From an uncultured Pseudomonadales bacterium (GTDB lineage: Bacteria; Patescibacteriota; Microgenomatia; UBA1400; PJMF01): a DNA stretch of 64,000 nucleotides. Shown here piece after piece: positions 28,536-36,193 of this stretch. Where the stretch lies: NCBI GenBank assembly GCA_964556485.1, contig CAZKVV010000001.1, forward strand, positions 148,551-212,550. The letters run 5' to 3'. How positions within the stretch are numbered: the first letter of the stretch is position 1; every line of letters begins with the position of its first letter. The notes beneath the pieces were generated by a model. It was not told the DNA's origin, searched no databases, and worked only from the letters and a program-made list of their open reading frames with translations. Position numbers and translations under genes: made by a program.

Positions 28536-30321
28536 TAACTAGCATTGGAAACATAAAGCGATACGAGAGGTCATCAATGACAACTTCAACTAACACTGAA
28601 TTATCACCTGTCTCAACAAAACTGCTGACGTCAGCGTCATATGCGGCTATCAAAGATGCGTAGATTTCCTCTTGCTCTGGGGTTATAGCACTATTTACAC
28701 TCGACTGGTTGAACGAAAGAAAGCTTACACTGAAAAACTCATTTTTTCCGGGAGTCAATGCGCTATTTACCATATTTTGCACAGCTGCATCATCAAAGGT
28801 AACTCCTTCTGGAAGATTAAATGAAAAATATCCGCCACCATCTTTAATTGCGATAACTTTGATTGTTCCGTCGTTCATTGTTTTTTCCATCCATGCTGGA
28901 ATAGAAATTGTTCGCTGATCACCGTTGCTGTCAAAATAGTTTGCATCAATTCGTGCTCGTACGGAAATATCTTGCAAATTGAAGCGCTCAAATGAGGTTC
29001 CCGCATGTTCTAAAATCATTCCATAGAATGTTGATTTTTCGAGTGGACCATTTGCAAACTGCTCTAAGAATAGTTCCATGATTCTTGCTTCATCGGCGTT
29101 TGCAGGTGTTCGCTCGTAAGTGTCTCTGGTTTCTTGAATTTGAGTTGATGTTATATCTACAGTTGGGGTCGCTGTTGGAGATTCTGGAGGGGTAACTTCA
29201 GTTGGTTCAATAGCCGGTTCAGTAGGCTCAACTTCTGGTGCTGGTAAACCTAGCATCGCTGCTCTTTCTGTCTCGTATTGTTCTTTGGTTACAAATACAT
29301 AGACACCTTTGTCTGGATCATATAATAAATAGTATTTTCCGGAAGTGTCTGTATTCGTCCATGTAAGTCCAAACATTCCTGGAACATCAAAAATTTCTTC
29401 GATGGTTGTTTCTCCATCAGGATCAAAAATTTCGTATTGAATATCTAGGTTGGATGGAGTGAGTACGCTACCCTCTTGATCACCTTGCACTTCGAGGCCT
29501 GTTACAACTGCACCTGAAGGGTGGGTGAAGATTAGGTATTGTGCTTGACCACCATCATCAAAACCACAGAGTAGTGCGTCATGCGAACCATATTCCGCAT
29601 CAGCAAAATTAGCATACTCATCTGTTCCTGGTAAGTTTCTAAATCTGAAAAATGGGTTTGCATCCCCTCCGAAGTGTGATAAAAATGCAGGATTTGAGAT
29701 GACTGCCTCGCTGGGTTTCCCTCCGGTAATACCAGTTTCAGCAAAGCACATCTCATAATACTCTTTTAATTCTGGGCTTAGTTCAGTCCAATCACCGCCA
29801 ATTACACCATCTGGAATTCTTGTTAATGCAACTTCTGCAGTTATGCTGGCAGGAGCTTCAAAAGTTGGTGTAGGGGTTAGAGGTATTGCTGTCTGAGCTT
29901 CAAAAGGAGTGGGAGACTCTTCTATTTGGACTGTTTGTGTTGGAAATGAAGTTACGCCAGGTTCAAGTGGTATTGTTGCGCAGGCTGCAAAAAAAACAAT
30001 AGTAATAATAATGAGTGCGAGAATCACTGCGAATCGAGATTCAGCATGACCATTTTCACTTTTTTTCTTAAGATCTATAAATTGAGTCGGATCACCTTTT
30101 AACAAATCGCCTATTGCTTCTTGTGCAGTTTCATTAATTGCTTCAATTTTCTCTGGTGTTAACCCTTGTTCAATAAGAGCTGCCTCAGCAGTTGCCGCAG
30201 CAGCTTCGAGAGAAGTAATAGCTGGTATTCCCGCAATACCTGCAAGGTCCGCAATGTCTACGGGGTGTGATTCTTGGCCTTCCAAGCCATTAATTGCAGC
30301 GAATTCAGCAGGTTGTGCCAT
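28519..30321 (-). CDS. bitopic membrane protein (about 115-aa cytoplasmic N-domain, TM, about 480-aa extracytoplasmic domain), unknown function
   Basis: Start set at MAQPAEFAAING. TM segment FAVILALIIITIVFFAACA. PT/PE-rich linker segments. Confidence 0.5.
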   Translation of the reverse strand: MAQPAEFAAINGLEGQESHPVDIADLAGIAGIPAITSLEAAAATAEAALIEQGLTPEKIEAINETAQEAIGDLLKGDPTQFIDLKKKSENGHAESRFAVILALIIITIVFFAACATIPLEPGVTSFPTQTVQIEESPTPFEAQTAIPLTPTPTFEAPASITAEVALTRIPDGVIGGDWTELSPELKEYYEMCFAETGITGGKPSEAVISNPAFLSHFGGDANPFFRFRNLPGTDEYANFADAEYGSHDALLCGFDDGGQAQYLIFTHPSGAVVTGLEVQGDQEGSVLTPSNLDIQYEIFDPDGETTIEEIFDVPGMFGLTWTNTDTSGKYYLLYDPDKGVYVFVTKEQYETERAAMLGLPAPEVEPTEPAIEPTEVTPPESPTATPTVDITSTQIQETRDTYERTPANADEARIMELFLEQFANGPLEKSTFYGMILEHAGTSFERFNLQDISVRARIDANYFDSNGDQRTISIPAWMEKTMNDGTIKVIAIKDGGGYFSFNLPEGVTFDDAAVQNMVNSALTPGKNEFFSVSFLSFNQSSVNSAITPEQEEIYASLIAAYDADVSSFVETGDNSVLVEVVIDDLSYRFMFPMLVNASVH

Positions 30322-30497
30322 TATTGCTTTCTGTTGGGAGTAAACCACATATTGTTTTATTAAATAGTGGTGTGGTAAACTTCCCTCTTCTTGCACTTAC
30401 TCTACCAGTTTTTGCGTGGTATTTGTATTGTACAAATCGTTCAGTATTTTACCACTGAGTCTTATAATATTGCAATGCGTAGCAGATGTGTAGGGAA

Positions 30498-31067
30498 TTA
30501 GTTAATGACGTTTTCCATCGAATCTAAAATTAGTCTTCTCACGAAATCTGATTTGGATGTATTTCTTTTTTTAGACTCAGTTATAAGAAAAGTGTTCAAT
30601 TTGGAAGATAGTACCATATTAAACCGAATCTCATTGGCTAAGTTCATCTCGAGTAAATAATATTCGACAAGCTCTTTTAATTCAGAATCAGATGAATATT
30701 CACAGAAGAAAACTTTGTTAAGTTTTTCCAAGGTGGGGATGAGATTTGGTTTCGGCTTACCTTTTTTAAAAAAAATTACAACCGGTTTTCCAATGCTTAC
30801 TGCATGAGAAAGGAGGAATCCAACACTCAGGCTTTGTTTGCTGCTTTCTGATATGACAACGTCAGTGCTGGAAATATTTTTAAGTAATTTGAGATGAAAT
30901 GCTGTGTTTTCCAACTCATTTTGCAGGTCAATTTTTTCTTGCGAGTAAGTAGTTACATGGTCACAAATTAAAGTGATTTTGTTGTTATCGCAGACATTCT
31001 TAATGACCTCAATGCTTTTAGCATAAAAATCTTTTTCACGAATTGATCCAATAAAAACTACTTTCAT
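30498..31067 (-). CDS. NDT-like (nucleoside 2-deoxyribosyltransferase/SLOG-like) domain fused to a C-terminal ribbon-helix-helix domain; catalytic Glu replaced by Leu
   Basis: MKVVFIGS start and an SVGFLLSHAVSIGKPVV segment that aligns with the NDT GxGMELGYAxxxGKxV motif but has L in place of the nucleophile E. C-terminal RFNMVLSSKLNTFLITESKKRNTSKSDFVRRLILDSME is a CopG/Arc-like RHH. AT-rich codon usage. Confidence 0.55.
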   Translation of the reverse strand: MKVVFIGSIREKDFYAKSIEVIKNVCDNNKITLICDHVTTYSQEKIDLQNELENTAFHLKLLKNISSTDVVISESSKQSLSVGFLLSHAVSIGKPVVIFFKKGKPKPNLIPTLEKLNKVFFCEYSSDSELKELVEYYLLEMNLANEIRFNMVLSSKLNTFLITESKKRNTSKSDFVRRLILDSMENVIN

Positions 31068-31087
31068 TATTGTTTTGATAGTATATC

Positions 31088-31104
31088 ATACTTACTCAGT
31101 AAGT
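31088..31104. promoter_or_regulatory. 17-bp perfect palindrome TACTTACTcAGTAAGTA in the divergent promoter, candidate RHH operator
   Basis: Read directly. Centred about 26 nt upstream of the 30498..31067 start and about 50 nt upstream of the 31145 start. Confidence 0.5.
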
Positions 31105-31144
31105 AGCTTTGCTGCAAAAAGTGATACAATAACACTCACTAATA

Positions 31145-32188
31145 ATGTCAAAAATGAATAATAACAAATCAGGATTGGTTGAAATTAAACCGTTTATAGT
31201 TAAATCTGTAGGCGAACACAGTATGGGCGCCCCAGTATTGAAATACTTAGAGATAAAGATGCATGATTATCTCAGAGATCACAGTAGAAATTTTAAAAAG
31301 ATTTTAGTTATCGGTGAGTATGATAGAACGTGCTCGATATCTTCATTTGAAAAAGATGGCAAAACATCTAACTGGCAACGTCCAACCGCAGAAATCATCA
31401 ATGATGAGCTAATAATAAAATGTTTTCCTGGAAAGGATTATGTTAGGCATTATGCATCATTAATTGCCTCATATTTGTATTTAACTGATCGAAAGTGGTC
31501 GCATGTTCGATATGTCTTGCCAACAGAAGCGAAATGTGAGGCAGCAGTTGACGACTTATTCCTTGAAAATATTCCCGTTGGAGATGTGTTAATCATTGGA
31601 AGTGGTTTGCCTGCAATCGCAGGCGAAGATCGATGGGAAGGGAATAATCATTATTTATATAAGTCAGTCTCAATTAATAATCAAACGGTAGTATTTTTAA
31701 TTTTTCAGTTTAGTTTTTGGGGTGATATTCTTTACAGAATTATAAAAAAGATGGGTTCATCATTTAAAAAAATTCTCTTCACAGCAAAGGTTGGTGGAAT
31801 TAGATCAGATTTAATTCCTAATGAAACATTAGCAACAGGCAGTCAATCATTTATAGATGGAGAATTTGTAAGTTGGAAAGGTCTTTTCGAAGATGTAACT
31901 TCTCCATTTTTGGTAAAAGGTCGGCATATTAACTCACCTTCAGTACTGTTGGAGACTAAAGCTTGGGTAAAATCATTTTCTGGAATAGAGTTTGTTGACT
32001 CAGAAATTGGCTACTTTATTAAGTCTACTAGAGATATTGGTGTTAACTCTGGATATTTGCACTTTATTTCAAACAATCTTACGAACCCACACGCTGAGGA
32101 TCTCTCAAATGAGAGGGAAAAAAGTGTTATTCTCAAGCGAAGTAAATTGAATGAAGAAATCAGAAGAATAATTTACGAGATTATCTGA
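31145..32188 (+). CDS. hypothetical protein; C-terminal two-thirds resemble the PNP/UDP phosphorylase / nucleosidase fold (low confidence)
   Basis: By-eye motif resemblance only: DVLIIGSGLP, KILFTAKVGGIRSD and FVDSEIGYFI resemble the G-rich phosphate/ribose loops and the (D/E)MEGAA-like segment of MTA/AMP nucleosidases. The 130-aa N-terminal domain is unknown. Very AT-rich. Confidence 0.45.
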   Translation: MSKMNNNKSGLVEIKPFIVKSVGEHSMGAPVLKYLEIKMHDYLRDHSRNFKKILVIGEYDRTCSISSFEKDGKTSNWQRPTAEIINDELIIKCFPGKDYVRHYASLIASYLYLTDRKWSHVRYVLPTEAKCEAAVDDLFLENIPVGDVLIIGSGLPAIAGEDRWEGNNHYLYKSVSINNQTVVFLIFQFSFWGDILYRIIKKMGSSFKKILFTAKVGGIRSDLIPNETLATGSQSFIDGEFVSWKGLFEDVTSPFLVKGRHINSPSVLLETKAWVKSFSGIEFVDSEIGYFIKSTRDIGVNSGYLHFISNNLTNPHAEDLSNEREKSVILKRSKLNEEIRRIIYEII

Positions 32189-32235
32189 TAGAATTCCAGG
32201 TATATGTTATCCAATTTAATAAGGAATGCGAGATT

Positions 32236-32799
32236 ATGAAAGTGCACTTTATTGCTGATGTTGATGGAGATAAAACTGATTATAAAAAGATAATTTCAAC
32301 AATTGAATCACTTAATCATACGATTGTTACAAGGCATTACTTAGAAAGAAAAATTGAGGAAATTGTTCAGGAGTCTCCAGCTGAATCTGAACTATATGCT
32401 AAGAGGTCAATGAGATGGTTGAAAAATGCAGATGTGGTAATTTTTGAAACAACCAAGCCAGATGTGAGTGTGGGGTATGAGCTTGCCGTTGCAGTTAATT
32501 TGAATAATCCTGTGATAGTTATGTATCACAATACAAAAGGTACGCCCCCGAATAGCATAAAGGGTGTAGAATCAGAAAAACTTCAGATCATTGGATACGA
32601 CGACAGCACCTTAGTGGAAATTCTTGAGATTGCACTTGAAAATGCGCATGATTCAACTGATGTCCGCTTCAACTTCTTCATCTCCCCTTCTATTGGTAGC
32701 TATCTCGACTGGATTTCTAAGAATAAGAAAGTCCCACGCTCAGTGTATCTTCGTAATCTCATTCAAAGAGACATGGAAGAGAATGAAGAATATCGATAA
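32236..32799 (+). CDS. NDT-like (nucleoside 2-deoxyribosyltransferase/SLOG-like) domain fused to a C-terminal ribbon-helix-helix domain; catalytic Glu retained
   Basis: Paralog of 30498..31067 (about 30 percent identity, co-linear). SVGYELAVAVNLNNPVIV matches the NDT GxGMELGYA..GKxV motif including the Glu. C-terminal VRFNFFISPSIGSYLDWISKNKKVPRSVYLRNLIQRDME is an RHH. Confidence 0.55.
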   Translation: MKVHFIADVDGDKTDYKKIISTIESLNHTIVTRHYLERKIEEIVQESPAESELYAKRSMRWLKNADVVIFETTKPDVSVGYELAVAVNLNNPVIVMYHNTKGTPPNSIKGVESEKLQIIGYDDSTLVEILEIALENAHDSTDVRFNFFISPSIGSYLDWISKNKKVPRSVYLRNLIQRDMEENEEYR

Positions 32800-32947
32800 G
32801 TTGTCAATCATAACACGATATCTTTATCGATCATGCTTAGCTCAATTTTTCCCACCCTCCTCTTGCGGTTTCTCTGTCTAGTACGCTATAGTAATAAAAG
32901 GTTTATGAGCACGACGCAAAAGTAGTGTATAAATCAGGTAGTACTGC

Positions 32948-33763
32948 ATGTCCAAAACACACCAAACTAATCGACTACAACACGCAAACGTAGTGTGTTG
33001 CGGCAACTCCCAATCTGGTCAAGTTGCTGTGGTTGTATTGCTTATCATGGTGGTATTACTCACCATTGGTCTGTCTCTCGCGGCCAGAACCACCCAAGAA
33101 GTCTTCCTTTCTCAACAACAATCAGATAGTGCTAGAGTATTTAATGCTGCAGAATCTGGCGTTGAAGAGGCTCTGAGTCAAAGTTTTGCTACCGGTGCCA
33201 CAAACGGTAGTCTCGTAGTGGACGGTATTGATGTTAATTACACGGTTAATACTCAAAGTCGACTCGACACACTCATTACTGAGGGTATGAGTGCTCACAT
33301 ACAATTAAATGGTTATGCTGGAAACATTACCATAGACTGGGCGCAAGAAGCCAACTGTGCAGACAGGGCATCGTTCATTGCGACAATTTTTTATGACGAT
33401 GCAGGAGTACTGAGATCTCAACACCTAGCCTTTGGACCACCAACAACTTGCGTCAATCATAACGATAACTTCCTCCAGGGTTCCAACTTGGCAGGAAATC
33501 CGTTCTATCACCGCTACATCATTAGTGGCGCTACGCTCCCAGCCAATTCACAATTTATTCGCCTCAAGCCGGTGTATGCAGATGCTGACATTTTAGTAAC
33601 TGGTAGTACTGGATTCCCAAGTCAACACAATACCATTCGTTCAACTGCTACTTACTCAGGTGGGGATGAACAGCGTAGTATAGAAGTATCGCGTAGTCTA
33701 CCTGCTGCACCAGCATTTATGGATTACGCACTGTATTCAGGAGGAAGCATTACAACGCCATAG
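32948..33763 (+). CDS. PilX-like minor pilin / pilus assembly protein
   Basis: N-terminus QSGQVAVVVLLIMVVLLTIGLSLAARTTQE resembles the PilX N-terminal domain; the rest is secreted. Confidence 0.6.
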   Translation: MSKTHQTNRLQHANVVCCGNSQSGQVAVVVLLIMVVLLTIGLSLAARTTQEVFLSQQQSDSARVFNAAESGVEEALSQSFATGATNGSLVVDGIDVNYTVNTQSRLDTLITEGMSAHIQLNGYAGNITIDWAQEANCADRASFIATIFYDDAGVLRSQHLAFGPPTTCVNHNDNFLQGSNLAGNPFYHRYIISGATLPANSQFIRLKPVYADADILVTGSTGFPSQHNTIRSTATYSGGDEQRSIEVSRSLPAAPAFMDYALYSGGSITTP

Positions 33764-33796
33764 CAAAAATACGTGTAGTATAAGAAAGCCTGCCCT

Positions 33797-34804
33797 ATGT
33801 CCACACTCGCCATCGATATCGGTTCCTATAGTATAAAAGCAGTCAGCGGTAAAGCTGGGGTCTCACCTCATGTTGATCGTGTTGTTGAAGTTTTTAATAC
33901 CACTGGACTTGCGGTCCCTACCGATGATCCAGCTCAAGAAAAACTAGCTGGTTTACTTGAATCTATCCTTGCAGACAATGACTTACCTCGCACAGATGTG
34001 AGACTCTCACTTCCAGAAACAGTTATTTCAACCAAGGTTATCAGCATTCCACCACTCAGTGATGCTGAGCTTGCTTCTGCCATTGGTTGGCAAGCGGAAC
34101 AACACATTCCGATTCCTCCAGAAGAATTGTCTCTCGAATATCAAGTCTTGTACCGTCCTGTCAAAAAAGACAAAGAAATGATGCGTATTCTCCTTGTGGG
34201 TGCTCGCAAACAAGTAGTTGAGCGCTATGTGGAAATGTTCCACATGTTGGGTATTGAACCATCATTGGTAGAAACACAGATTATTTCTATCATCCGCTCT
34301 TTGGTTTTCACCCCACAGGATCCTACAACTTTGGTCGTACACATGGGTGCTTCTTCTATGAATATGGCAATGGTTGCTGGCGGCGAACTTCAGTTTGTGA
34401 CGACTCACATGAATGGTGGTCAGTTGCTCTCTAAAGCACTCGAACAAACCATTGGTTTAGATCGAACACAGGCAGAAAAATACAAGCGCACCTATGGTTT
34501 AGATGAATCTCAGTTCCAAGGTAAAGTGAAGGCAGCATTACTTCCAGCAGTAAACGTACTCACTACCGAGGTAAAAAAGGCTGTGCAGTTTTATATTCAT
34601 GAGCATCCTCAAGATTCTGTCCATCGCGTTGTTTTATCTGGTGGGACTGCCGCACTGCCTCATTTTGTCCAACACATCACTCAAGAATTGGGTACTGAAG
34701 TACTTGTTGCTGCCCCACTTACTAATGTCGGTGGGACGCTTCCAGCAAATATCAATCCTCCTGCACTCGGCGTGTGTATGGGGCTGTTGATGAGAGAAGA
34801 TTAG
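33797..34804 (+). CDS. pilM: type IV pilus assembly protein PilM (actin-like ATPase fold)
   Basis: MSTLAIDIGSYSIKAV start and an ASKHA-fold pattern throughout. 335 aa. Confidence 0.85.
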   Translation: MSTLAIDIGSYSIKAVSGKAGVSPHVDRVVEVFNTTGLAVPTDDPAQEKLAGLLESILADNDLPRTDVRLSLPETVISTKVISIPPLSDAELASAIGWQAEQHIPIPPEELSLEYQVLYRPVKKDKEMMRILLVGARKQVVERYVEMFHMLGIEPSLVETQIISIIRSLVFTPQDPTTLVVHMGASSMNMAMVAGGELQFVTTHMNGGQLLSKALEQTIGLDRTQAEKYKRTYGLDESQFQGKVKAALLPAVNVLTTEVKKAVQFYIHEHPQDSVHRVVLSGGTAALPHFVQHITQELGTEVLVAAPLTNVGGTLPANINPPALGVCMGLLMRED

Positions 34805-34807
34805 CGT

Positions 34808-35386
34808 ATGTCAAGAGATATCAACTTTGTTGCTATTCGGCGCAAAAAGCTTACATCTGAGCAAAAGCGGGATAAAGTTTATTTTAGGTATGCCACATGG
34901 GGCGTCTTGGTTACTTTTGGAGTGATGCTGCTTATCGTTGGCGTGAGATTGTTTGCGGTTATACAAGTCAAGAAACTTACGGATACTCAAGCTTCAACAA
35001 AAAAAGCGATAATGGCGCAAGAGCAAGTCGAGAAAGATTACAATATTTTTGCTCACAAGTTAAAAGCGCTCTCAGAACTTTTTGGCCGACGTTTAGATAA
35101 ACAAGAAGCAATGGTGTTCTTTAGCCAGGCTTTTGGCCAGCATATTATCATTAGTGAGATTGATTATAGTGCTGAAGCTGACGATATTGTAACGTTTACC
35201 CTTACCGCCCCAAGTGTCTTTGATCTAGAAAATGTGTTTGCCATTTTGGAACGTCCCGATGTTTCTGAAAAGTACACTTCAATAGTAAAAAGTGGATTAA
35301 GTCGAGGCGGAGATGGGTTTTACAATATTAAACTTACCATTGCCTTGGGGAAACACAAGTTGCCTGAACCAGAAGTAACGGAATAA
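34808..35386 (+). CDS. pilN: PilN-like pilus assembly protein
   Basis: INFVAIRRKK N-terminus followed by a single TM. Follows pilM. Confidence 0.65.
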   Translation: MSRDINFVAIRRKKLTSEQKRDKVYFRYATWGVLVTFGVMLLIVGVRLFAVIQVKKLTDTQASTKKAIMAQEQVEKDYNIFAHKLKALSELFGRRLDKQEAMVFFSQAFGQHIIISEIDYSAEADDIVTFTLTAPSVFDLENVFAILERPDVSEKYTSIVKSGLSRGGDGFYNIKLTIALGKHKLPEPEVTE

Positions 35387-35392
35387 TACACC

Positions 35393-36193
35393 ATGCTAGA
35401 ACCTAAAGATAAATCACAAATTAATTTTAAAGTTATCTGGACAACCAGAAAATACATGGTGTTTACAGTGGGCATTGTTGCTTTGATAGTGTGTTTAGTT
35501 GCTTTTGGAATGTATCCACAAGTTGCAGCTGTTCTCAAACTAAGAGCTGAGTATCAAAATGAAAAGCCAAAATTAGATAAACTTCAGGCAAAATTGGCAG
35601 AATTACAAAATGTTTTGTTTACTGAAGAGTTTGTTCACGCACCACTAGTCAATGAGGCTCTGCCTTCAAATAAGCCATTGCTAGAGTTTTTAACCAGTTT
35701 AAATACTATTGCGGTAGTCAACGAGATTGCGGTTACCAACTTTGAAATTAATCCGGGAATCATTGCTACTGATGCTTCTCAAGTGAATCAGGCAAGTAAA
35801 GCTAAGGGTTCGGTTGATTCTCTTGAGCTCAGTCTAGAAATTGAAGGTAGTTTTGATCAACTGCAGGCATTTTTATTGGATATCGAGAGAATTTCTCCGT
35901 TTACTACCATCACTACGTTATCACTCGGTAAAGGCGCCTCAGCTGCAGATAGAGGGACTGATAGACTTATTTCCGCATCACTCACAACTAAAACATATTT
36001 CTTTGTTCAAACAATAAAAGCCACTGTCGAAGCGCCATTGCCAAAGTTGGGTGCAAATGATCGAAATGTGTTGAATGCTCTGGCAGAGTTTCAGGCTTCT
36101 GATTTGCCTGAGCAAACAGAGATCATTGGTGGAGGCGTTGAAGATCCATTTGGCGTGGGAAAACTAGAGATACTAAACCAGTTTAAAAACTAA
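35393..36193 (+). CDS. pilO: PilO-like pilus assembly protein
   Basis: N-terminal TM, then coiled coil (LKLRAEYQNEKPKLDKLQAKLAELQN). Position after pilM and pilN. Confidence 0.55.
   Translation: MLEPKDKSQINFKVIWTTRKYMVFTVGIVALIVCLVAFGMYPQVAAVLKLRAEYQNEKPKLDKLQAKLAELQNVLFTEEFVHAPLVNEALPSNKPLLEFLTSLNTIAVVNEIAVTNFEINPGIIATDASQVNQASKAKGSVDSLELSLEIEGSFDQLQAFLLDIERISPFTTITTLSLGKGASAADRGTDRLISASLTTKTYFFVQTIKATVEAPLPKLGANDRNVLNALAEFQASDLPEQTEIIGGGVEDPFGVGKLEILNQFKN

Follow-up and report, generated by a model that had tools for sequence, protein, structure and literature searches.

A multi-copy DNPH1-like/ribbon-helix-helix protein family in Patescibacteria: putative ligand-responsive regulators with glutamate-retaining and glutamate-less pockets

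The stretch of DNA considered here, a window of 64,000 nucleotides from an assembly titled 'uncultured Pseudomonadales bacterium' (GCA_964556485.1, contig CAZKVV010000001.1, positions 148,551 to 212,550; GTDB lineage Patescibacteriota, Microgenomatia), carries a block of three genes, A, B and C. Genes A and C encode paralogs that join a DNPH1/Rcl-like domain to a C-terminal ribbon-helix-helix (RHH) domain; C has kept the catalytic glutamate of the fold, and A has leucine in its place. They belong to a DNPH1-like/RHH family that is present in multiple copies in Microgenomates; no published description of it was found, and it is the larger finding of the analysis. With moderate confidence, we infer that its members are putative ligand-responsive RHH DNA-binding regulators of nucleoside and nucleotide salvage. 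An original prediction made for this locus contained neither the RHH domain on both copies, nor the NP-I fold of B, nor the large multi-copy Patescibacteria family. The RHH domains, together with B as a predicted NP-I enzyme, shift the picture towards nucleoside salvage, with A and C as its regulators or trigger enzymes.

The Glu/Leu difference lies at exactly the catalytic nucleophile position of the fold. A and C are 30% identical over their whole length (BLASTP, E 3e-20), and the alignment sets SVGFLLSHA of A opposite SVGYELAVA of C, so that the original claim of a Glu in one paralog and a Leu in the other is borne out at codon level (GAG and CTC; Table 1). Phmmer alignments and a family-wide hmmalign alignment place Leu85 of A and Glu82 of C in the column of the nucleophile Glu within GVGYELG of rat Rcl/DNPH1 (E93 in the rat protein, E104 in human DNPH1). 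Superposition of a model of C on DNPH1 structures, the type of check that had been proposed, leads to the same position. In human DNPH1 the catalytic triad is Tyr24-Asp80-Glu104, with Glu104 as the nucleophile (PMC10483697, PMC12751057), and the E104Q variant is catalytically inactive with substrate binding kept (PMC12751057). By this comparison, the Leu copy A is predicted to be incapable of the covalent double-displacement chemistry of DNPH1 and NDT. The substitution is not a chance event, since the column varies by deep clades across 369 family members.

Both proteins have the Rossmann-like NDT/DNPH1 fold, and their closest solved relative is DNPH1/Rcl. C matched DNPH1/Rcl with E 7e-13 and A matched it with E 1.4e-5 over residues 3-102 (phmmer), and a profile of 142 family members matched DNPH1 with E 9e-25 over residues 3-137. 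The AlphaFold2 (AF2) model of C (pLDDT 90.5) was matched to DNPH1 crystal structures by Foldseek with E 1e-8, a target-normalised TM score of ~0.8 and an rmsd of ~2 Å. The core motif E-x(4)-PS-x-GVG-Y-E-L is common to DNPH1 and the family. The NDT-like identity originally proposed therefore stands at the level of the superfamily and of the nucleophile-Glu logic, but DNPH1 is a better comparator than Lactobacillus NDT: the family profile reached trypanosomal and lactobacillar NDTs only with E 0.03-0.6. On PF05014, C scored 27.6 bits, slightly below the gathering cut-off of 28.8, and A scored 12.8, far below it; an NCBIfam scan of A, B and C gave no meaningful match. Unlike DNPH1, the A/C family is bacterial (Patescibacteria) and occurs in multiple copies per locus.

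The extent of the family emerged only from exhaustive searching. A word-indexed homolog search with A recovered A alone; an exhaustive HMMER search with the same query was needed and returned 470 representatives at 50% identity. The homologs of C number 174, with lengths of 185-195 residues, all from Patescibacteria metagenome genomes. A genome scan located 170 family loci, of which 80 were fetched, mostly from Woesebacteria, Collierbacteria, Chisholmbacteria, Beckwithbacteria, Pacebacteria and other Microgenomates-group genomes. The family, with proteins of ~190 residues, is thus largely specific to Patescibacteria, mainly Microgenomates. In the sources its members are annotated only as 'hypothetical protein' or NDT/DNPH1, and literature searches returned no description of a DNPH1/NDT-RHH fusion or of DNPH1 in Patescibacteria. 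Many contigs with clear Patescibacteria gene content and synteny (within L006-L083) bear the titles 'uncultured Pseudomonadales', 'Methylococcaceae', 'Limisphaerales', 'Treponemataceae' or 'Bathyarchaeia', and these record titles look like taxonomic mislabels or binning contaminants. Other architectures of the DNPH1-like domain occur in the same sequence space. For example, the 401-residue protein P0261 combines a family-related NDT/DNPH1-like domain (PF05014, E 7e-12) with ~270 further residues of unknown nature, and also weakly matches SLOG and ThsB-TIR.

Across 369 distinct full-length members, the nucleophile column holds Glu in 200 and another residue in 169 (Leu 101, Ile 21, Val 14, and Tyr, Gln, Met, Trp, Cys or others 33), counts that come from a sample biased by its two queries and are not population frequencies. 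When the N-terminal domains were clustered by UPGMA with the nucleophile column masked, ~11 changes between Glu and non-Glu accounted for all 369 tips, and the nearest neighbour had the same state for 351 of them. C falls in a cluster in which 70 of 71 members have Glu. A sits in an all-Leu cluster of 14, sharing 36-44% identity with its 13 cluster mates. The Glu-less forms thus fall into old, stable clades, with A a member of a maintained pseudoenzyme lineage. That A is a recently decayed copy was considered and rejected, given its all-Leu cluster and the depth of the Glu-less clades. It is this abundance of Glu-less proteins, about half of the sampled members, that favours a nucleotide-sensing regulator over an enzyme with a decoy or a toxin with an antitoxin.

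The pocket has been remodelled beyond the nucleophile. At the position of the triad Tyr, which hydrogen-bonds the Glu (rat Tyr13, human Y24), C has His4, a possible hydrogen-bond donor, and A has Val4; in hmmalign alignments the Glu clade has Tyr (111/200) or His (69/200), together 180 of 200, and the Glu-less clades have mainly Phe (70) or Tyr (57; n = 169). Rat Trp72, present in 147/200 of the Glu clade, is lost from the Glu-less clades. The phosphate elements, also in rat numbering, show the reverse. Ser17 is Ser in 139/169 Glu-less sequences, versus Ser in 108/200 and Ala in 67/200 of the Glu clade; Arg19 is Arg in 109/169, versus Ser, Asp or Thr; and Ser87 is Ser in 157/169, versus Ser in 127/200 and Asp in 43/200. 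In the Glu-less clades, therefore, the Ser-x-Arg loop and the Ser that precedes GxG are kept, and the pocket Tyr, Trp and Glu are gone. The family as a whole has no general-acid Asp (rat D69, human D80); the corresponding column is occupied by Leu, Met, Val, Ser, Ala, Thr or Ile in both clades (Ser58 in C, Leu61 in A).

Human DNPH1 binds the 5'-phosphate through backbone NH groups (Ile29, Arg30, Gly31 and Gly100) and through Ser98 and Ser128' from the other subunit (PMC10483697). A keeps S8-I9-R10 of the GSIR phosphate loop and S79 before GxG, with E11 in place of Gly and Pro in place of Ser'. It looks like a binder of phosphorylated ligands without chemistry. A ligand-binding, non-catalytic role, as had been suggested for the Glu-less copy, is plausible because these phosphate-loop residues are kept. 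In C, Asp occupies three of the DNPH1 phosphate-binding positions (D8, D10 and D76), and the phosphate site is not retained. With no general-acid Asp and three acidic residues at the phosphate site, C would not be able to act as a DNPH1-type hydrolase of deoxynucleoside monophosphates (dNMPs). It does keep the Glu with a putative hydrogen-bonding partner, and activity on any substrate is unproven. The proposal of an active enzyme paired with a dead copy is consequently retained for A, as a likely pseudoenzyme, and is not supported for C as the active partner.

Each paralog ends in ~45 residues that DNPH1 lacks (VRFNFFISPSIGSYLDWISKNKKVPRSVYLRNLIQRDM in C, IRFNMVLSSKLNTFLITESKKRNTSKSDFVRRLILDSM in A). 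In the AF2 model of C this tail consists of a coil (140-150) and two helices (151-164 and 168-182), the appearance expected of an RHH domain modelled as a monomer. A profile of 39 diverse family C-termini matched CopG (1b01/2cpg) over its full length with E 0.006, including the strand Arg and the Asn/Thr positions, and other RHH proteins came next. Pfam matches among these 39 were to RHH_1 (6/39), RHH_3 (5/39) and NikA-like (5/39) models, with TraY also matched. The ortholog at A's position in locus L002 scored 21.3 bits on RHH_1, against a gathering cut-off of 20.5. Taken alone, the tail of C reached RHH_3 only with E 0.12, and the tail of A, which has diverged from the family RHH consensus, had no significant Pfam match. 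From these comparisons, the C-terminal domain of the family is predicted to be an RHH domain of the CopG/MetJ/Arc type. Unlike CopG, MetJ, Arc and NikR, the family places the RHH at the C-terminus, fused to an enzyme-derived nucleotide domain. The tail is also better conserved than any other part of the family proteins, and RFNFFISPxIGNYLDWISKNKKIPRSVYLRNLI is near-invariant across paralogs with N-domains ~40% identical.

Gene B, which lies between the two paralogs, probably encodes an NP-I fold nucleoside phosphorylase- or hydrolase-like protein. B itself had no Pfam or PDB sequence match; 26 of 91 B homologs matched PF01048 (PNP_UDP_1; best E 1e-6), and the AF2 model of B (pLDDT 95) was matched by Foldseek to MTAP, MTAN, PNP and futalosine hydrolase (E ~1e-10, target TM 0.5-0.66). 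Its family has the invariant motifs NWQRPT, FWGD, GKxG, PN..LATG, VD(P/S)E, HxxS(D/N)N and EDLSNER. The HxxS(D/N)N motif is dimorphic, with Asp in 57/91 and Asn, as in the B of the window, in 34/91; its resemblance to known motifs suggests that it may correspond to D204 of PNP, D197 of MTAN or N243 of human PNP. Seven loci contain B, which in every case lies between a divergent family copy and an ortholog of C. Homologs of B come from Patescibacteria, from several fungi (Mycena, Aspergillus, Caloplaca, Chaetomidium) and from an 'archaeon' bin. Two homologs of ~600 residues, P0137 and P0144 (one labelled 'archaeon'), have an N-terminal domain of ~260 residues with no Pfam match, which carries the motifs LDNSAPY, VLPD, AVPQG, GISY and HLLGxGN.

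These features can be assembled into a regulatory scheme. A and B are divergent, separated by a 77-bp spacer, and B and C, 47 bp apart, are probably on one transcript. A would serve as a pseudoenzyme sensor to which a (deoxy)nucleoside monophosphate binds but stays uncleaved, and would probably act at a palindrome in the divergent A/B-C promoter. C could likewise be a sensor, in its case of a different ligand that carries no phosphate, or it could be a 'trigger enzyme', able to turn over its ligand as well as to bind DNA. B would then be the salvage enzyme that A and C control, with the two paralogs coupled by homo- or heterodimerisation through the RHH and the DNPH1-like dimer interface. The regulators might also control the adjoining DNA-uptake pilus genes.

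Enzyme-derived regulators of nucleotide metabolism offer a parallel. Examples are PurR of B. subtilis, an inactive sensor of the phosphoribosyltransferase (PRT) fold with a DNA-binding domain; PyrR, a uracil phosphoribosyltransferase that is also a regulator; NadR; and NrdR. Conceptually, each has a pseudoenzyme or still-active enzyme domain as the nucleotide sensor through which salvage or biosynthesis genes are controlled, and by analogy the Glu-less proteins may be PurR-like and the Glu-retaining ones PyrR- or NadR-like, although the folds and DNA-binding domains of these regulators are unrelated to those of the A/C family. NikR follows the same logic, with a ligand-binding domain and an RHH. 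HicB-type antitoxins have the same domain order, an N-terminal alpha/beta domain followed by a C-terminal RHH; unlike them, the A/C family has no partner toxin gene, no matches to defence or toxin/antitoxin models, and a housekeeping context.

A synteny survey of 82 non-redundant loci found two conserved slots. The first, in ~30 loci, holds 1-5 copies directly upstream of pilX-pilM-pilN-pilO; the second, also in ~30 loci, holds 1-3 copies between dnaX-ybaB-recR and cysS. In ~60 of the 82 loci, therefore, family genes lie in conserved core-gene neighbourhoods and not in variable islands, and either slot is open to either the Glu or the Glu-less state. The A-position slot is occupied by different subfamilies in different genomes: the gene at A's position in L005 (4176-4760) has Glu, and in L086 (3420-4585) an A-type Leu copy is coupled to another Glu-less paralog with one nucleotide shared. 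Genes found between or beside family copies encode PfkB-family kinases (18 loci), thymidine kinase (5 loci), dCMP/cytidine deaminase, PRT-like proteins, S-adenosylmethionine (SAM) methyltransferases, radical-SAM proteins and RmlC-like proteins. The largest array seen, in L021 (3211-7109), has five paralogs with Ile, Leu, Met, Glu and Leu at the nucleophile column beside pilX-pilMNO.

The arrangement of copies bears on a different view, in which the locus is a purely metabolic module: C would be a working N-glycosidase or deoxyribosyl-transferase acting with B, A would be its non-catalytic heterodimer partner, and the RHH-like tail would serve only to oligomerise. Tandem copies are often translationally coupled, frequently with an overlap of 4 nt or 1 nt, the B-C gap shrinks from 47 bp here to 9 bp in L002, and salvage enzymes are interleaved with family genes, all of which such a module would accommodate. 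The DNPH1 active site is likewise composed of residues from both subunits (PMC10483697), and the Glu of the E clade is invariant and accompanied by its Tyr/His partner and a conserved Trp. Nonetheless, the nucleophile is missing from nearly half of the family, and copies with and without it fill the same syntenic slots; a single non-Glu copy stands alone in 13 loci; and the 49 adjacent pairs comprise 14 of two Glu copies, 19 mixed and 16 of two Glu-less copies. The absence of the general-acid Asp from the family, the Asp substitutions at the phosphate site of C, and the full-length match of the tail to DNA-binding RHH repressors, strand Arg and Asn/Thr positions included, also count against it. 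A metabolic module of this kind therefore seems to us somewhat unlikely. As a rule for the family, 'active plus dead' pairing was rejected, as the 19 mixed pairs compare with ~24 expected at random and are not enriched.

Several observations nonetheless weigh against regulation of salvage. A clade of ~200 sequences conserves the Glu at 100%, together with a Tyr/His partner; this argues that the Glu clade, at least, remains catalytic, in which case C may primarily be an enzyme. If each regulator controlled its own neighbour, RHH domains that are near-identical across very different pockets would be surprising, and this near-invariance would be explained just as well by a DNA target shared among the paralogs, by heterodimerisation that is obligatory or by non-specific tethering to DNA. 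Salvage genes are the immediate neighbours in only about one-third of loci, and the frequent radical-SAM, RmlC-like and methyltransferase neighbours have no obvious fit. Operators, too, have been elusive. The A/B spacer contains a perfect 8+1+8 palindrome of 17 bp, TACTTACTcAGTAAGTA, which is unique in the window even with 3 mismatches and is flanked, as we read the sequence, by two extended -10-like elements, one per direction; it is not conserved in the orthologous loci L002, L005 and L006, and is best viewed as a local candidate operator only. Comparison of dyads, direct repeats and k-mers in 111 family-adjacent versus 270 other intergenic regions yielded no shared operator, nor did k-mer enrichment upstream of 134 family genes; what these searches turned up was limited to -10 elements of promoters and the start codons of the genes themselves.

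The lack of gene-specific operators in the intergenic searches would be expected if the RHH simply anchored the DNPH1-like domain on DNA, at a common site or non-specifically, where it would act on or sense DNA ends or modified nucleotides during uptake, recombination or replication. Such tethering would also suit an RHH that is extremely conserved whatever the pocket type, and slots beside pilus assembly genes and dnaX-ybaB-recR. DNPH1-fold enzymes, however, act on free mononucleotides, with no precedent on polymers; many of the neighbours are plain small-molecule salvage enzymes; and housekeeping synteny is by itself weak functional evidence. We consider this explanation improbable.

The original prediction also likened the pair to toxin/antitoxin or sensor/effector systems. 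On such a reading the Glu copy would be a toxic, nucleotide-depleting glycosidase, with neutralisation or sensing left to the Leu copy or to the RHH. PADLOC returned no significant family, only a sub-threshold ThsB/TIR-like match of C (E 0.03) and nothing for A or B, and PHROGs likewise gave nothing significant. A and C share one two-domain architecture, Glu-only and Glu-less-only loci are common, and family genes lie in the core-gene neighbourhoods described above; among the open reading frames (ORFs) of the window, no mobile-element gene adjoins the A-B-C block. To be set against this are the RHH domains typical of antitoxins, the fact that some defence systems have NDT, TIR or PNP-like effector domains, and the composition of two of the genes. 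The GC content of A (0.325) and B (0.342) is below that of every other window ORF of >=180 aa (0.369-0.472, window median 0.428), with C at 0.371. The defence or toxin/antitoxin reading was rejected on the database results and the conserved housekeeping context, and we judge it highly improbable. The low GC and the distant relatives of A suggest that A and B were laterally replaced, or evolved fast, in a conserved slot. Apart from one 99% copy, the nearest relatives of A are at <=44% identity; C has orthologs at 78%.

If regulation of salvage by A and C is taken as the preferred reading, a broader hypothesis can be formulated, which we regard as speculative and unlikely to hold in full. The family would be the main nucleotide-sensing transcription-factor system of Microgenomates-group Patescibacteria, composed of paralogs with differently tuned pockets that (hetero)dimerise via the near-invariant RHH. 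Glu-less pockets would bind (d)NMPs, and Glu pockets would be trigger enzymes or, given the missing Asp, covalent ribosyl-adduct sensors. DNA uptake, replication and recombination, and salvage would thereby be coupled to the scavenged nucleotide pool. Candidate-phyla bacteria have no de novo nucleotide synthesis and presumably subsist on DNA that they scavenge (PMC6744442).

The small genomes of candidate-phyla bacteria have few recognised regulators, and the A/C family offers a concrete, testable candidate for a sensor of nucleotide supply. Its candidacy rests on a lineage-wide distribution in several copies, on a pocket derived from a nucleotide hydrolase and joined to an RHH, and on positions beside pilus, dnaX-recR and salvage genes. 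The Glu/non-Glu split, with its correlated phosphate-loop changes, would provide a clean evolutionary example of how an enzyme fold can be turned into a pseudoenzyme sensor, and could guide the engineering of ligand specificity in DNPH1-like proteins. Should the proteins prove to be only enzymes, the gain would be the more modest one of annotating hundreds of 'hypothetical proteins'.

Coordinates of the block are collected in Table 1. It sits within the type IV pilus locus of the window, with PilB (14471), PilT (16579), PilC (17654) and a pilin (19075) upstream, and PilX-like (32948) followed by PilM, PilN and PilO-like downstream.

Table 1. Features of the A-B-C block and its downstream neighbours (window coordinates)
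Feature	Position	Strand	Description	Basis
Gene A	30498..31067	minus	189 aa; Glu-less DNPH1-like + RHH paralog, putative pseudoenzyme type	ORF
A DNPH1/NDT-like domain	30645..31067	minus	aa 1-141; V4, S8-I9-R10 (31038-31046), L61, S79, L85	
A Leu85 codon CTC	30813..30815	minus	nucleophile-Glu position	
A C-terminal RHH (predicted)	30513..30629	minus	aa 147-185, IRFNMVLSS...FVRRLILDSM	alignment with family RHH
Palindrome 8+1+8 TACTTACTcAGTAAGTA	31089..31105		A/B spacer; candidate RHH operator	inferred
Gene B	31145..32188	plus	347 aa; predicted divergent NP-I nucleoside phosphorylase/hydrolase, PNP_UDP_1 superfamily, with N-terminal extension	
Gene C	32236..32799	plus	187 aa; Glu-retaining DNPH1-like + RHH paralog	ORF
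C DNPH1/NDT-like domain	32236..32652	plus	aa 1-139; H4, D8, D10, S58, W61, D76, E82	
C Glu82 codon GAG	32479..32481	plus	equivalent of DNPH1 nucleophile	
C C-terminal RHH (predicted)	32662..32781	plus	aa 143-182, VRFNFFISPSIGSYLDWISKNKKVPRSVYLRNLIQRDM; near-invariant family consensus	
pilX-like, pilM, pilN, pilO-like	32948..36193	plus	downstream; conserved syntenic partner of family genes, context only	

Directly upstream of A within the pilus locus, the minus strand between 24209 and 30396 holds three overlapping or abutting genes, which encode a 1204-residue Cys/Gly/Thr-rich surface-type protein with Pro-Thr linkers and two proteins of 240 and 625 residues, both without a Pfam match. An Rfam scan over the window returned three tRNAs only, with no riboswitch near the block, and no intrinsic terminators were predicted in 30300-33000. 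The spacer before pilX (window 32860-32905) contains a conserved promoter, CCC(A/C)TTGCA-N17-GGTATTAT. This pyrimidine-rich, promoter-like element, written across genomes as CCC(A/C)TTGC(A/G)-N17-GGTAT(T/G)AT, is conserved before pilX in distant Microgenomates (L002, L021, L026, L027, L031, L038, L040 and others). Finally, an inverted repeat, ATCGATAA-N24-TTATCGAT (32792-32831), overlaps the stop codon of C, has the palindromes ATCGAT and GATATC nested in it, and may form a hairpin or serve as a binding site.

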